NCBI GenBank assembly: GCA_943788875.1
Contig: CALSSA010000012.1
Coordinates: forward strand, 18,855 to 82,854
Source of the DNA: an uncultured Pseudomonadales bacterium
GTDB lineage: Bacteria > Pseudomonadota > Gammaproteobacteria > Pseudomonadales > Porticoccaceae
DNA: 64,000 nucleotides
Reading direction: 5' to 3'
Below the pieces are notes generated by a model that worked only from the letters and a program-made list of their open reading frames with translations, was not told the DNA's origin and made no database searches. Position 1 is the stretch's first letter, and the number at the start of each line of letters is the position of its first letter. The translations under genes were made by a program, and so were the position numbers. Positions 2,383 to 38,003 of this stretch are shown here, one piece after another.

Positions 2383-3687
2383 ATGTCCGATACAGCAGCA
2401 ATTACAAATCCCCGCTCGCAACAGCTTTTTGAGGCTGCCAAGCAGCATATCCCCGGCGGTGTTAATTCTCCGGTCCGCGCCTTTCGCGCTGTGGGCGGGA
2501 CCCCTGTATTTTTTGACCGCGCCAGCGGCGCCTATATGTTCGACGCAGATGGCAAGCGCTATACCGACTATGTACTGTCTTGGGGCCCCATGCTGCTGGG
2601 CCATGGCCACGAAGATGTGCTGTCGGCAATTCGCACACAGCTAGAAAAAGCCATGACATTTGGCACTCCCACAGAATTAGAGATTAAACTGGCAGACAAA
2701 ATTTGCTCAATTGTGCCAGGCATGGAAATGATTCGTATGGTCAACTCGGGAACCGAGGCTACCATGAGCGCCATTCGCCTTGCCCGCGGTTACACAGGCC
2801 GAGATAAAATCGTAAAGTTTGAGGGCTGTTATCACGGCCATTCGGATTCTCTGCTGGTCAAGGCAGGTTCCGGCGCACTAACCCTGGGTGTGCCCAGCTC
2901 CCCCGGTGTTCCCGATTGCCTTGCAGATCACACAGTGACCCTTTCCTATAATAATATTGAGCAGGTCAAGCAGGCCTTTGCTGAAATTGGCGATCAGGTT
3001 GCCTGCATTATTGTTGAGCCCGTGGTTGGCAATATGAACTGCGTGCCACCTATTCCCGGGTTTCTCGAAGCTCTGCGCGAGTGCTGCACAGCCAGCGGTG
3101 CGCTGCTTATTATTGACGAAGTTATGACCGGGTTTCGTATTAGCCAACAAGGTGCAATCGGTCATTATGGTATTGATGCCGACCTTATTTGTCTGGGCAA
3201 AGTGATTGGCGGCGGCATGCCAGTTGGCGCATTTGGCGGCAAGCGCGAAATCATGCAACAAATTGCGCCTCTGGGTCCTGTATATCAGGCAGGCACCTTA
3301 TCCGGAAATCCAGTTGCCATGGCGGCGGGCCTGGCAACTCTCGAACTAATATCAGAGGCAGGCTTTCTGGAGCCAGTGATTGAGCGCACAGACAGGTTGG
3401 TGAAGGGACTCGTCGAGCGAGCCAGGGCTGCCGACATTCCAATGACCAGCAACCATGTCGGGACCATGTGGGGCGTTTTCTTTTCCACCGAGGAAAAAAT
3501 TATCAATTACGATCAGGTGATGCAGTGCGATACCGAGCGCTTTGCCAAGTTTTTTCACGGCATGCTCGAGGAAGGCGTCTATCTGGCACCGGCTTCCTAT
3601 GAGGCGGGCTTTATGTCGGCGGCACATACGGATCAGGATATTGAAGATACCCTCAATGCCGCAGAGAGAGTCTTTGCAAGGATATAA
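2383..3687 (+). CDS. hemL: Glutamate-1-semialdehyde 2,1-aminomutase
   Basis: [30 protein letters not shown] lysine in [16 protein letters not shown]. Confidence 0.98.
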
Positions 3688-12463: not shown

Positions 12464-12467
12464 AGTC

Positions 12468-12637
12468 GCTCCTGGGGTGTTTGCCAGCCAAGAAGTCCCT
12501 GAGCCGATAATTTATACCCGGCAGTTCTCCGCCAACAATGTTGTGCACTTCCGTGCGTCGGAAAGCCTGATTTGTTGCGAGGATAGCCACCTTGAACTCT
12601 TCGGTTCAAGGCCACGTTGGCAGCGGCACTCTGGGGT
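12468..12637 (+). ncRNA. ssrS: 6S RNA
   Basis: Canonical position between zapA and ygfA; conserved GTCCCTGAGCCGATA and CCTTGAAC-TCTTCG-GTTCAAGG segments; 5' CTCCTGGGGTG/TGCCAG pairs with 3' TTGGCA/CACTCTGGGG; ends approximate. Confidence 0.93.
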
Positions 12638-12660
12638 TTAACAAAAATCGGTTCGAATCT

Positions 12661-34597: not shown

Positions 34598-35347
34598 ATG
34601 GATCATCCCTTTTTCAGCTTTGATATTCCCTTTGCATCTTTTAGTGCATCCCATTGGTGGACATTGGCCGCCTTTGTCCTGATATTGGCGCTGACAATAC
34701 GGGTAGGTCAAAAACTCAGCCCCAATCAAAACCTTTGGCTGGGAAGGGTAATTGCCATCTTCCTGTCTATTACTGTGGTTATTTTCTCTTGGATTCACAG
34801 TGCCAACGGCCTGTTTAACTATAAGGTAGATCTACCTCTCTCAATCTGTAACCTGTTCGCTCTGCTGGCGCCGCTGCTATTTTGGAAGCCCAATTTCAGG
34901 CGCTTTGAGATGATTTATTTTCTAGTACTGTGCGGAACATTTCAGGCGATGCTGACACCAGACCTCTATGCCGGTTTTCCCAGCTATGGTTTCTTTAAAT
35001 ACTGGATTGTCCATGGCGGATTGGTGATTCTGGTGATTCATCATCTGCTGGCTTTCCAACTTATTCCCCAAGCCAAAGGTATGGTGCGGACATTTGTCTG
35101 GCTAAATGTCTATTTACTGGCACTGGTGCCGGTAAATCTAATTTTGGATGCCAATTATTTTTATATGATGGAAAAACCTATCAATCCGTCGATATTGGAT
35201 TATTTTGGCGACTGGCCATTTTATATTCTGGTGTGTGAAGTATTGGCCATGGGCTTTTTTGCCATTGCCTACGTACCTATTTTAGTAGGCAAGAAATACT
35301 TTTCCAAAGCGACTACAATTGCAACTGACGAACCCACAGATAGATAA
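34598..35347 (+). CDS. YwaF/TIGR02206 (TMEM164-like) integral membrane protein
   Basis: About 6 TM segments; [39 protein letters not shown] family-type motifs. Confidence 0.75.
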
Positions 35348-35348
35348 C

Positions 35349-35993
35349 ATGGCAAATCGACAACTCTCAGGTCTTGACCGAATTTTAACCCAGCTGGATC
35401 AGGGCTTGCGCACTGTTCTGGGCAATGCTCCTGCGCCACAGCGAGCCTCACCGGCCGTTGAGCTCACTGAGTCGGAGCTATCTGATCAGGAGCGCCAGCA
35501 TGCTCTAGGGCTAATGCGAGTAAATCACGCAGGGGAAGTCTGCGCTCAGGCTCTGTATCAGGGCCAGGCACTGACTGCCAAGCTGCCCGAAGTGGGTGAG
35601 CAAATGGAGCATGCTGCCGCAGAAGAAATTGACCATCTGGCCTGGTGTGAACAGCGTATCCATGAGTTGGGCGGGCGCACCAGTGCACTAAATCCACTGT
35701 GGTATGCCATGTCTTTTGGCATTGGGGCCGGGGCCGGTTTTATTAGCGATAAACTCAGTCTCGGCTTTGTGGCTGCGACTGAAGATCAGGTCTGTGATCA
35801 TTTGCAGCAACATCTCGAGGAATTGCCGGCCAATGATCAAAAAAGCCGCGCTATTGTTGAGCAGATGCTCGAAGATGAAGCGCGACACGCCCAATCCGCG
35901 CTGGATGCAGGAGGCCATCAGTTTCCTGCACCTATCAAAAAACTGATGACCTTGGTTTCCTCTGCCATGACCGGCAGTAGTTATCGACTGTAG
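35349..35993 (+). CDS. coq7: Demethoxyubiquinone hydroxylase (di-iron Coq7 type)
   Basis: [40 protein letters not shown]. Confidence 0.95.
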
Positions 35994-36980
35994 TTACCTT
36001 TGTTTGGCAACGCTGCCGCTCTCGGCCTCAAGCGTTTTCTCCCAATCATGAATCAAGCCAACAATCTTATCTGACAACCAGCGGTGAATGCCGGAGCCGG
36101 ATGTGCGCTTGTGTTGCAGTAACACCAATGAGATCGTACCTTTGTGAGGCAGGTCTGCTGGATAGGGCTTGCGCACAATACGATACATTTCACGTTCCAT
36201 AGTGAGACCATGTTTGGCGGCCACCATCAGACAGTCCGTACCACAGACAGTTTCTACTGCAGTCATCAACTGATTAGTCACCAGAGCTTTTTTGCGCTTG
36301 CGGCCCATATCTCGAAGAACTCGATCAAATCGTGCATCGGTGCGCGCACTGACGCGCTTGGCAATCAGCAGGTAATATTGCACAAAGGGATATTCCAGAA
36401 TTTCATCCAAGGTGACGCGACTTTTTTCAGCAAGGGGATGGTCTTCTCTCATCCAGATAGACGGCGTAAAGTTAGCCAGGCTTCTGATGCTAATGTCTTC
36501 TGTCATGGTTTTTTCAATATCAATAGCAAAGTCCAGTACGCCTTCTGCCAGCTCACCCTCTACTGATGAATCAGTCTCACTGGAAATTGACAACACCACA
36601 CCAGGCGCATGCTCAGTGACCACTTTGGATAATTGAGAGATCAGAGAAATGGCTACAAACTCAGGGACAGCAATACTAATCTCACCCACATAGGTAGCCG
36701 GATCAAACTCCCCCTCACTAACCATTTCCAAAATGCTATCCAACAATCTGGGCAACCGGGCCTGTAACTCCCGTGCTTTGGGGGTTGGTACAAGTTCATT
36801 GCCTGTGCGGGTAAATAATGGGTCATCGAGCTGATGTCTAAGCCGCTGCAATACGCGACTCATGGCGGGCTGAGTGATAAATAATCGTCCGGCTGCACGA
36901 GTCACGCTTTTCTCTTCAAGCAGGGCCTGCAGCGAAACCAGTAAATTGAGATCGAGTCGCGAAAGTTTCTGTAAATTCAT
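35994..36980 (-). CDS. LysR-type regulator, NodD/MexT/LeuO-like subgroup
   Basis: RLDLNLLVSLQALLEEKSVTRAA..LFITQPAMSRVLQRLR..LDDPLFTR helix-turn-helix; start at MNLQK. Confidence 0.92.
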   Translation of the reverse strand: MNLQKLSRLDLNLLVSLQALLEEKSVTRAAGRLFITQPAMSRVLQRLRHQLDDPLFTRTGNELVPTPKARELQARLPRLLDSILEMVSEGEFDPATYVGEISIAVPEFVAISLISQLSKVVTEHAPGVVLSISSETDSSVEGELAEGVLDFAIDIEKTMTEDISIRSLANFTPSIWMREDHPLAEKSRVTLDEILEYPFVQYYLLIAKRVSARTDARFDRVLRDMGRKRKKALVTNQLMTAVETVCGTDCLMVAAKHGLTMEREMYRIVRKPYPADLPHKGTISLVLLQHKRTSGSGIHRWLSDKIVGLIHDWEKTLEAESGSVAKQR

Positions 36981-36993
36981 TAAATTAAGCTCC

Positions 36994-37033
36994 ATTACCA
37001 AAACGCATATTATTAATGCAAACAATGCATTTG
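36994..37033. promoter_or_regulatory. LysR operator copy 1 (two T-N11-A sites 7 bp apart, nod-box-like)
   Basis: ATTACCAAAACGCAT-N7-ATGCAAACAATGCAT-TTG, between the LysR start and a divergent sORF; repeated at 37371-37410. Confidence 0.75.
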
Positions 37034-37059
37034 GATTATGTCATAGGAATCTCTATATT
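37031..37059 (+). promoter_or_regulatory. sigma70-like promoter of unit 1
   Basis: TTGGAT-N17-TATATT with the -35 abutting the operator. Confidence 0.55.
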
Positions 37060-37105
37060 GTCACCCATAGAGCAGTGGCTCTTAAATTTAACTAAGGAGA
37101 TAGAC

Positions 37106-37216
37106 ATGACACTCGTATATTTAATGATAGGTTTTACTGGCCTCGCGGGTGCTGCAATTGCGAAAGATAGTTTCGCCAAGTTGGAAGCACCAGGACTCGA
37201 GGCTTCTGAGAAGTAA
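37106..37216 (+). CDS. 36-aa small hydrophobic protein MTLVYLMIGFTGLAGAAIAKDSFAKLEAPGLEASEK
   Basis: Strong SD TAAGGAG 6 nt before ATG 37106; downstream of a promoter and upstream of a terminator; N-terminal hydrophobic helix. Confidence 0.65.
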   Translation: MTLVYLMIGFTGLAGAAIAKDSFAKLEAPGLEASEK

Positions 37217-37311
37217 AACTCGACAGCAACACTGAGTTTTTATTTACAGATTTACCAAATTCGTAGTTTTAAAGTATTACCCCTCTTAATCCTTGCTATA
37301 GGATTTTTTAC

Positions 37312-37339
37312 CGGGACCTGCCAAGGTCCCGTTTTTTTT
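37312..37339 (+). terminator. Rho-independent terminator 1
   Basis: CGGGACC-TGCCAA-GGTCCCG followed by T8. Confidence 0.9.
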
Positions 37340-37370
37340 GCCTGACCATTTTTAACGGTTAGTTTTGCAT

Positions 37371-37436
37371 ATTACCTAAACGCATGACTAGGATGCAAAT
37401 AATGCATTTGATTTATAGGCAGCAGATTTCTAATAT
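37371..37436 (+). promoter_or_regulatory. LysR operator copy 2 plus sigma70-like promoter
   Basis: ATTACCTAAACGCAT-N7-ATGCAAATAATGCAT-TTG (31/40 identical to copy 1); TTGATT-N17-TAATAT in the same register (+377). Confidence 0.72.
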
Positions 37437-37442
37437 GCTCCT

Positions 37443-37568
37443 ATTGAAAGAGAGACAGCAGTTTTAGAGAGGTGGCTAACAGCGGCTTCTCACATGTTTT
37501 ACCCCTAACCCCTCTTTGTATTCCATTCAAAGAATTTTTTCAGGAGCCTGCCAAGGCTCCTTTTTTTT
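37443..37568 (+). ncRNA. Candidate ~125-nt small RNA (unit 2)
   Basis: Bounded by promoter copy 2 and a plus-strand-only terminator; no credible ORF; 5' hairpin GAGAGG/CTTCTC and C-rich single-stranded core; 5' end estimated. Confidence 0.6.
37542..37568 (+). terminator. Rho-independent terminator 2
   Basis: AGGAGCC-TGCCAA-GGCTCCT followed by a T run; same loop as terminator 1. Confidence 0.9.
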
Positions 37569-37577
37569 GCCTAAAAT

Positions 37578-38003
37578 TTAGATACCAGCGGCCTCAATTA
37601 CATAACTATGACTCATTTCAACACCAGCAGCTTCAAGCATTATAGAGGCGGAGCAATATTTTTCGGCTGACAGCTCAACGGCACGCTTAACCTGCGCTTC
37701 TTTAAGATTAACGCCAGTAACGGTAAACTTCAGATGTATCTTGCTAAACACTGCAGGTACCGCGTCGACTCGCTCTGCTTCGACCTCAGCCCTGCAATCA
37801 GTGACCTGCTGGCGGCCCTTTTGCAGCATGCTCATCACATCGAAGGAAGCGCAGCCACCAAGTCCTACTAAAATCATTTCCATTGGGCGCACGCCCATAT
37901 TCCTACCGCCCTGCTCCGGCGCTCCGTCCATAACCACTGAATGGCCACTGCCGGATTCACCTAAAAACATCACACCGTCTACCCATTTTACTGTTGCCTG
38001 CAT
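37578..38003 (-). CDS. yhfA: OsmC/YhfA family protein
   Basis: GVRPMEMILVGLGGCASFDV, SAEKYCSAS; divergent from crp as in enterics and Pseudomonas. Confidence 0.9.
   Translation of the reverse strand: MQATVKWVDGVMFLGESGSGHSVVMDGAPEQGGRNMGVRPMEMILVGLGGCASFDVMSMLQKGRQQVTDCRAEVEAERVDAVPAVFSKIHLKFTVTGVNLKEAQVKRAVELSAEKYCSASIMLEAAGVEMSHSYVIEAAGI

Follow-up and report, generated by a model that had tools for sequence, protein, structure and literature searches.

In the enterobacterial OxyR-OxyS and GcvA-GcvB systems, a LysR-type transcriptional regulator (LTTR) activates a divergent Hfq-dependent small RNA (sRNA), and the operator is shared with the regulator's own autoregulated promoter; the GcvB seeds are G/U-rich, not C-rich. 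In the enterobacterial SgrR-SgrS/SgrT system, an RNA of ~230 nt is activated by a divergent regulator; its 5' part contains a small open reading frame (ORF), its 3' part a base-pairing seed, and it has a terminator. The peptide and the seed address the same physiological problem. Tandem sibling sRNAs are found in Neisseria (NmsRa/NmsRb, also termed RcoF1/2 and NgncR162/163); we know of no LTTR operator or peptide in the NmsR family. The AbcR sRNAs direct C/U-rich motifs against ribosome-binding regions, and the small proteins controlled by their regulator VtlR are soluble, not membrane peptides. In Alphaproteobacteria, the gene of this LTTR (VtlR/LsrB) lies directly upstream of the tandem sibling sRNAs AbcR1/AbcR2; it directly activates genes of sRNAs and of small hypothetical proteins by way of a short conserved box, and its direct targets are very few (PMC7486931). 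Here we analyzed a window of 64,000 nt (C12:18855-82854) from a SAR92-clade genome of the HTCC2207-type genus, family Porticoccaceae (2.48 Mb, 14 contigs, 94.85% complete), with a focus on a LysR-type regulator gene and the gap separating it from yhfA/osmC. Two tandem small units within this gap are probably the recognizable output of the regulator, both locally and genome-wide, and would comprise Hfq-type sRNAs with an anti-Shine-Dalgarno (anti-SD) motif and a membrane micropeptide.

Comparison with described systems

VtlR-AbcR, OxyR-OxyS, GcvA-GcvB and SgrR-SgrS/SgrT are all precedents for this regulatory logic, and VtlR/LsrB-AbcR1/2 is the closest: in both cases an LTTR is found beside two tandem sibling sRNAs and small proteins. 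The locus studied here differs in belonging to Gammaproteobacteria (Porticoccaceae), in the absence of an Rfam match, in the divergent rather than co-oriented arrangement of LysR and the RNAs, and in the relation of the peptide ORF to the sRNA module: within the cassettes next to the regulator, the ORF is either physically joined to this module or exchanged for it. In the VtlR system, the small-protein gene atu1667 was regarded as a distinct target that has a promoter of its own, and the reported operator is GCAT-N3-TG-N3-T (PMC7486931), as opposed to ATGCA-N5-TGCAT here. The SgrS-like traits are the divergent regulator, the 5' small ORF, the putative 3' seed and the terminator. However, SgrR is not an LTTR, its system has no sibling RNA and no sequence similarity to this locus, and the ORF and the seed also form separate cassettes here in some genomes. 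OxyS and GcvB are single sRNAs without a peptide, and neither family was matched by Rfam models at this locus. The NmsR RNAs share the tandem sibling arrangement, a C/U-rich anti-SD-like motif between hairpins and the terminator, but the phylogeny is different, and the score far below the gathering value means that the present RNAs are not members.

This score, for NmsRb (RF02877; 22.1 bits, E 0.73, gathering score 52), was the best Rfam match in the region and is at chance level. No Rfam family, among them AbcR, PrrF and OmrA/B, reached its threshold in the cassette region, where permissive thresholds were also tried, or in six related loci. A literature search found no paper on SAR92 sRNAs or on post-transcriptional regulation in SAR92/Porticoccaceae. 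An initial annotation, made by a model from the sequence of the window, had suspected that this is not a described RNA system, and these searches bear it out. As far as sequence comparison goes, the RNA and peptide families are conserved and undescribed, and other bacteria already provide examples of the regulatory logic.

Organization of the duplicated cassette

The plus strand of the gap contains two copies of one cassette. Each copy comprises an operator of 46 bp containing a T-N11-A dyad, -35 and -10 hexamers that are weak and good, respectively, a short unit with the C-rich motif ACCCCUCUU, a small hairpin followed by a U-run, and a strong intrinsic terminator (Table 1). The initial annotation had read this succession of operator, promoter, transcript, C-rich motif, U-rich spacer and terminator twice in the gap, and each element was recovered in its place. 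A repeat finder located the operator half ATTACCnAAACGCAT at 36994 and 37371, the 15-bp dyad ATGCAAAnAATGCAT containing the T-N11-A box at 37016-37030 and 37393-37407, ACCCCT at 37279 and at 37501/37508, and a 37-nt module of U-run plus terminator at 37302-37338 and 37532-37568. The T-N11-A boxes of the divergent promoter region lie within ATGCAAACAATGCAT and ATGCAAATAATGCAT, the first being 36-50 bp from the lysR ATG, and are predicted binding sites. Both promoters are in identical register to the dyad, which is directly abutted by the weak -35 hexamer. A terminator scan of the gap revealed exactly two sites, both on the plus strand, and T-runs follow on this strand only. Since coq7 converges on the LysR gene and osmC is on the other strand, no protein-sized gene is located downstream of the plus-strand signals, which agrees with the early view that neither promoter has an ordinary protein gene to serve.

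Table 1. Features of the lysR-osmC locus and of its neighborhood; positions are those of the window.
Feature	Position	Strand	Details
LysR-type transcriptional regulator, 328 aa	35994-36980	-	ATG at 36980; GGAG Shine-Dalgarno (SD) sequence ~10 nt upstream
Gap between LysR start and yhfA/osmC			597 bp; contains both cassettes
Operator 1	36994-37039	.	ATTACC-N4-ACGCAT-N7-ATGCAAACAATGCAT-TTGGATTAT; dyad 37016-37030; direct repeats D3, D4
Promoter 1	37031-37059	+	-35 TTGGAT (37031-37036), 17-nt spacer, -10 TATATT (37054-37059); read from sequence; predicted start ~37066
lysR promoter-like site	37064-37035	-	GTGACA-18 nt-TGnCATAAT; consensus scan, 10/12 matches; predicted
Unit 1 transcript (predicted)	37066-37339	+	~274 nt; bounded by promoter 1 and terminator 1; layout conserved
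Small ORF, 36 aa	37106-37216	+	MTLVYLMIGFTGLAGAAIAKDSFAKLEAPGLEASEK; SD AAGGAG 37094-37099, six nt upstream
Hairpin over ORF stop codon, then U/A-rich stretch	37205-37250	+	U/A-rich stretch UUUAUUUACAGAUUUACCAAAUUCG; inverted repeat I1
Type-A core	37279-37309	+	Seed ACCCCUCUU (37279-37287), hairpin AAUCCU/AGGAUU (37288-37305), U6 (37304-37309)
Terminator 1	37312-37339 (stem-loop 37312-37331)	+	8-bp stem, 6 GC pairs, loop GCCA, then T8; terminator scan
Operator 2	37371-37416	.	ATTACC-N4-ACGCAT-N7-ATGCAAATAATGCAT-TTGATTTAT; dyad 37393-37407; direct repeats
Promoter 2	37408-37436	+	-35 TTGATT, 17-nt spacer, -10 TAATAT; read from sequence; predicted start ~37443
Unit 2 transcript (predicted), type-B sRNA	37443-37568	+	~126 nt; no conserved ORF; model R1 94.9 bits; fold z-score -3.3
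Type-B stem-loop 1	37467-37491	+	GAGAGGUGGCU...GCGGCUUCUC; 11/11 pairs with compensatory double changes, 52 sequences
Type-B seed	37501-37516	+	Duplicated C-run ACCCCUAACCCCUCUU; largely unpaired in predicted folds
Type-B stem-loop 2	37513-37540	+	UCUUUG/CAAAGA, then U6; 93.6% of cells paired; one compensatory pair, several G-U switches
Terminator 2	37542-37568 (stem-loop 37542-37561)	+	8-bp stem, loop GCCA, then T7-8; terminator scan
purD			Upstream end of the described neighborhood
TMEM164-family protein, 249 aa, membrane	34598-35347	+	Pfam PF14808, 2e-40; between purD and coq7
coq7	35319-35993	+	Converges on LysR gene
yhfA/osmC	37578-38003	-	
crp	from 38183	+	Followed by trpC, trpD
6S RNA (SsrS)	12466-12641	+	Rfam 95.7 bits; sole family at gathering score in the window

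The extended operator ACGCAT-N6-8-ATGCA-N5-TGCAT has exactly 2 sites in the whole 2.48-Mb assembly, both at this locus, and the search revealed no further sites that would mark a wider regulon elsewhere in this genome. The operator core ATGCNNNNAATGCATT was found in 39 of the 41 genomes of the genus, typically about twice per genome, on one contig and a few hundred bases apart; its reversed control gave 1 match in total over the 41 genomes. Core matches outside the locus in other SAR92 genomes were sporadic and single. Most of them had G/C-rich spacers and looked random, and a few were A/T-rich and came from fragmented assemblies. Since the core occurs about twice per genome on one contig and the additional matches are mostly random-looking, the recognizable regulon, as predicted from operator sequence, is essentially this locus.

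Sixty-six SAR92 loci were retrieved via the LysR protein. The succession of operator, 51 nt, predicted start and terminator was retained in nearly all of them, usually twice. The consensus per unit, derived from 57 distinct SAR92 sequences, was ATTAC-N7/8-GCAT-N7-ATGCaAAnAATGCATTnGnATTATG-N13-TAnanT, with conservation of both the -10 hexamer and its distance to the dyad.

The small RNA modules

The unit-2 RNAs of the SAR92 clade (type B) have four common elements: a 5' stem-loop of variable sequence, the single-stranded UUUUACCCCU(A)ACCCCUCUU, a hairpin CUUUG/CAAAG or its variant followed by U6, and the terminator. A covariance model, R1, was built from a curated sub-alignment of 20 unit-2 sequences with a hand-set structure of three helices, and 52 SAR92 homologues were realigned to it. 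In this alignment, 90.6% of cells formed standard pairs, as compared to 32-60% (maximum 59.5%) with partners slid by 1-3 columns. Changes on both sides were found in 16 of the 25 pairs, and none of 500 shuffles reached the observed covariation score. In the terminator 2 helix, all cells (100%) were paired and 4 of 8 pairs had compensatory changes. Unit 2, first annotated as lacking an ORF, has no conserved one, and its structure is conserved and covarying in 52 genomes.

In the type-A module of unit 1, the core (27 nt, seed plus hairpin) was identical in 50 of 54 distinct SAR92 unit-1 sequences, while at least 8 different perfectly complementary versions of the terminator 1 stem occurred across the clade. 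When the 3' region was folded by itself, the type-A seed was unpaired. R1, which is based on unit-2 RNAs only, matched the unit-1 module at 37235-37338 with 40.9 bits (E 8e-7 in the window, 3.9e-6 genome-wide). It found nothing else in this genome beyond the two units, and the 3' part of unit 1 was matched in nearly every genome with 30-50 bits. The units also share the C-rich motif, the U-run and the terminator loop GCCA. Because a model of unit 2 finds the 3' part of unit 1, the type A and type B modules are siblings, and their description as tandem siblings in the initial annotation stands. Beyond the window's genome, R1 matches were present in 66 of 151 Porticoccaceae genomes and 10 of 20 genera. 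Most of the matches in the other-genus loci examined adjoin a LysR orthologue (44-74% identity), and in five loci they lie between LysR and osmC. Porticoccus loci contain two terminator-bounded units with CUCCCUC motifs.

At the sequence level, the RNAs have the architecture of Hfq-type sRNAs, namely their own promoter, a length of 50-300 nt, a terminator with a poly-U run of at least 6-7, an internal U-rich stretch and a single-stranded conserved seed. The hfq gene is on contig C1, and its product is 76% identical to residues 1-82 of E. coli Hfq. The seed of the RNAs is similar to the 16S anti-SD sequence and has complementarity to ribosome-binding sites (RBSs) rich in G. A Rho-utilization site as the cause of the C-richness was rejected: strong intrinsic terminators follow directly, and the motif is invariant in sequence, not merely C-rich.

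The 36-aa micropeptide

Unit 1 (fold z-score -3.4) combines a small ORF with a 123-nt 3' region, consistent with its first reading as an ORF plus a structured 3' part. The peptide has an N-terminal hydrophobic helix followed by a charged tail. Its consensus, MTLVY[ILV][LM][IL]GF[TA]GL[AT]GAAIAKD[DS]F..., and a GGAG-type SD are kept together in 42 loci. In the first 30 codons of 38 distinct sequences, summed pairwise differences at codon positions 1/2/3 amounted to 5.2/1.8/9.9, and the ratio of nonsynonymous to synonymous differences (pN/pS) was 0.27 in frame vs 1.03 and 2.62 in the other two frames. Judged by this coding signature, the ORF is a gene under purifying selection.

When 1.84 billion representative proteins were searched with a profile of 16 peptides, 46 clusters were retrieved, all of them tiny proteins (29-116 aa) except for two long repeat proteins. 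The homologues came in two flavors, AAIAKDDF and SAIAWDDL, and were named in the source only as "hypothetical protein." No Pfam or NCBIfam match was obtained for the peptide even at E = 10. Both of the distant homologues whose contigs were looked up occurred in the context of coq7, LysR, osmC, crp and trpC. The peptide was confined to Porticoccaceae in a survey of 301 genomes representing 134 genera of the order. A Sec signal peptide with cleavage at A-I-A was rejected, as the sequence lacks a positively charged n-region and its conservation resides in the hydrophobic part.

The RNA module belongs to the same promoter-to-terminator unit as the ORF, with no strong internal terminator. The stem of the hairpin over the stop codon is retained with a different sequence in L034 and other loci; the hairpin and the U/A-rich stretch are a possible processing or Hfq/RNase E site that would split the mRNA from the sRNA part. 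As read from the predicted fold of full-length unit 1, CCUCU of the C-rich motif pairs with the SD of the ORF (GGAGA).

A different organization was observed in L055 (UBA4026 = G009:C71), where three operator-driven units instead of two, each of ~500-600 nt, occupy the region ~1-1700 nt upstream of LysR. The peptide motif was partially matched there (profile positions 16-34) within longer open frames (89 and 134 aa), which may represent a fusion or extension of the micropeptide.

Modularity of the cassettes and their retention in streamlined genomes

The content of the cassettes varies between genomes. In the window, H231, H921 and HTCC2207, an ORF+RNA cassette is followed by an RNA cassette. 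The clade of L040-L057 has two RNA cassettes; L077, L078 and L080 have RNA and then the ORF alone; and L098 has ORF plus C-rich module and then an ORF. Three cassettes were found in L125 (ORF; ORF+C-rich; RNA) and in L126 (RNA; ORF+C-rich; ORF). Judging from these layouts, ORF and RNA modules are recombined among cassettes with the same operator, which may carry the ORF only, the RNA only or both. In L126 (GCA_050486485.1), a long tandem array of the GTTGTCA heptamer at 3210-3340 directly follows the terminator of the third cassette, beside osmC.

Seven streamlined SAR92 genomes of 1.0-1.5 Mb encode the peptide nowhere but retain LysR. The streamlined genomes checked also keep the cassettes: G005, G147 and G168 have two R1 matches each, and a DNA-level match to the region was obtained for G012-G014 and G021. 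Since the RNAs are kept without the peptide in these genomes, they would have a function of their own.

The LysR-type regulator

The regulator contains an N-terminal HTH_1 domain (PF00126; 62.7 bits, 3e-17) and a C-terminal LysR_substrate domain (PF03466; 68.5 bits, 7e-19), both above the Pfam cut-offs, and has the ~300-aa size of an LTTR. Identity of its orthologues was 70-96% within SAR92 and 44-74% in other Porticoccaceae genera at the same locus. The nearest NCBIfam models were BsrA, LelA, YidZ, CitR and LeuO. Every one of them scored below its curated cut-off (127/480 bits for BsrA, 99/500 for LelA, 84/262 for LeuO), and the protein belongs to none of these named equivalogs. The closest solved structures were PA0477 (2esn) and DntR. 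NodD and MexT were absent among the best 25 of 52 matching families. The initial label of a NodD/MexT-type LysR was therefore right as to the LysR type and only loosely so as to the subtype, with BsrA, LelA, YidZ, CitR, LeuO and DntR/PA0477 matching best. In the LelA paper, LelA-type LTTRs are local regulators of Legionella effector genes; the literature on LelA/BsrA was considered as a guide to the function of the present LysR, and the LelA paper was uninformative in this respect.

The minus-strand promoter-like site of lysR and promoter 1 overlap in back-to-back orientation. At approximately +1 to +13, the predicted lysR transcript spans the dyad operator, and the predicted start falls within the first dyad. 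This placement suggests autorepression of lysR via a dyad over its own predicted start. A shared divergent operator is the classic layout of an autoregulated LTTR.

Some Porticoccaceae metagenome-assembled genomes (L079, L081-L085) encode LysR orthologues of 71-73% identity whose upstream regions lack the dyad operator, the C-rich motif and the terminator; in L079 and L084, the sequence upstream of LysR runs straight on without a cassette. Judging from these upstream sequences, the lineages appear to have kept the regulator and lost or replaced the cassettes.

Proposed mechanism and possible targets

From the comparative evidence, we infer transcription of the units, their dependence on LysR and base pairing of the RNAs. 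LysR would bind both operators and activate both promoters upon ligand, and would repress its own overlapping divergent promoter. The RNAs would act as Hfq-type trans-acting sRNAs, the C-rich seed pairing with G-rich RBSs (AAGAGGGGU, AGGGGUA) and blocking translation of the targets. Unit 1 may be a dual-function RNA like SgrS/SgrT, or an mRNA that releases its 3' untranslated region (3' UTR) as an sRNA. The micropeptide would be single-pass, insert in the inner membrane and modulate a membrane protein.

Targets were predicted in the genome of the window using duplex energy and 8-mer seed complements at start sites. Many genuine-looking start sites genome-wide (G000) have SDs of AGGGGUA or AAGAGGGG type. 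The candidates included genes that, from their translations, we take to be leuA, alpha/beta-hydrolase, aldo-keto reductase, H-NOX, proteorhodopsin, ald, dctP, ilvE and pssA. The strongest predicted duplexes involved the leuA RBS (-26.6 kcal/mol, type B), the alpha/beta-hydrolase site and the H-NOX site (10-nt match to type A).

SD variants of the AGGGGUAA and AGGGGUUA types in G000 are exactly complementary to UUACCCCU and UAACCCCU of the sRNAs. Examples of starts with these variants are presumably those of rplB, a TRAP solute receptor, proteorhodopsin, hisZ and mraZ, the names being read from translations. In L156-L184, where leuA RBSs were compared, type B CCCCUCUUUG of the window stands alongside leuA AGAGGGAAGGG; in the HTCC2207-like genome G002, type B is CCCCUUCCUUUG and leuA is AGGAAGAGAAG. 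This pairing of leuA and type-B sequences across genomes could be co-variation, or merely reflect purine-rich SDs.

Several observations weigh against the sRNA interpretation. Complementarity to leuA and H-NOX, both checked across the genus, was lost outside the nearest relative, and no target was established; moreover, any C/U-rich RNA scores against SD sequences. The covariation was counted on an alignment fitted to the model, which favors the structure. MAFFT and RNAalifold alone, applied to 41 unit-2 RNAs, recovered the terminator only, because the 5' stem was misaligned. Being invariant, the type-A seed and hairpin provide no covariation evidence. Finally, a dyad centered near -43 could repress rather than activate.

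The RNAs could instead titrate a protein, which would bind the C/U-rich motif and hairpin, and thus be sponges or decoys like RsmY/Z or CrcZ. Such a role would explain why the invariance of the 27-nt type-A core (50/54 sequences) goes beyond the needs of a short seed and why no conserved mRNA target was found (leuA and H-NOX were checked). It is unlikely, however: each RNA has one or two motif copies vs many in known sponges, GGA and A-rich Hfq/Crc motifs are missing, no candidate C-rich-binding protein was identified, and the single-stranded seed, U-run and poly-U terminator are the architecture of a base-pairing sRNA of Hfq type. The size and hydrophobic helix of the peptide, typical of type I toxins, and the predicted pairing of GGAGA of the ORF with CCUCU of the C-rich motif in full-length unit 1 would also suit a type I toxin-antitoxin-like system, with the peptide as a membrane toxin and the unit-2 RNA (together with the 3' module in cis) as an antitoxin occluding the RBS of the ORF. 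We consider this very unlikely. Extended complementarity between unit 2 and the unit-1 mRNA is absent, and the repeat search found no inverted repeat linking the units. The RNAs do not depend on the peptide for their persistence, as seven streamlined genomes have both RNAs and LysR with the peptide nowhere, and ORF-only cassettes without the C-rich module also exist. Moreover, the locus is single-copy, syntenic and not mobile, and the shared operator would induce the peptide and the RNAs together.

The same SD/C-motif pairing within unit 1 could point to a function purely in cis, in which the C-rich motif is an anti-SD element gating translation of the ORF and unit 2 is a decaying duplicate that lost it; the position of unit 2 does hold an ORF in L077 and L080. 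Decay is incompatible with the conservation of unit 2 in 52 genomes with compensatory changes in 11/11 pairs of the 5' stem, and in some clades both cassettes are RNA-only, which makes a purely cis role highly improbable. The poorest candidate, with a very low probability, is structural DNA without expression, the repeats being LysR autoregulatory sites and terminators for neighboring genes. Terminator 2 is indeed located just downstream of the osmC stop. But osmC and lysR are encoded on the minus strand and both T-runs occur only on the plus strand; in addition, the spacing of the -10 hexamers is fixed, the ORF has a coding signature and the RNAs covary.

If the reading as LysR-controlled anti-SD sRNAs and a micropeptide is correct, the regulator may govern a modular regulon similar to SgrS/SgrT, in which the peptide inhibits a transporter or respiratory component and the siblings silence the corresponding or related mRNAs; we put this forward as a tentative possibility of rather low probability. 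In that event, the shuffled ORF/RNA cassettes would be a natural series on the birth and splitting of dual-function RNAs and 3'-UTR sRNAs, and retention in 1.0-1.5 Mb genomes would mark the regulon as a core control circuit in a marine clade that is abundant and bloom-associated. The locus offers a new sRNA family with two subtypes and a covariance model, a new micropeptide family, a likely dedicated regulator and a defined operator. The retention of the regulator and both RNAs in genomes of this size argues for the importance of the circuit, and the cassette shuffling is a useful natural experiment in the evolution of dual-function RNAs. No new principle is involved, as LTTR-driven, sibling and dual-function sRNAs are all established already.

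Genomic context

Throughout SAR92, and in further genera of the Porticoccaceae, the order coq7, LysR, cassettes, osmC, crp is retained. Members of SAR92/Porticoccaceae are heterotrophs that abound in phytoplankton blooms of coastal and polar waters; HTCC2207, MOLA455, H231 and H921 are cultured strains. Upstream of coq7, the window encodes a membrane protein of the TMEM164 family (Table 1), the name of which derives from a eukaryotic protein.

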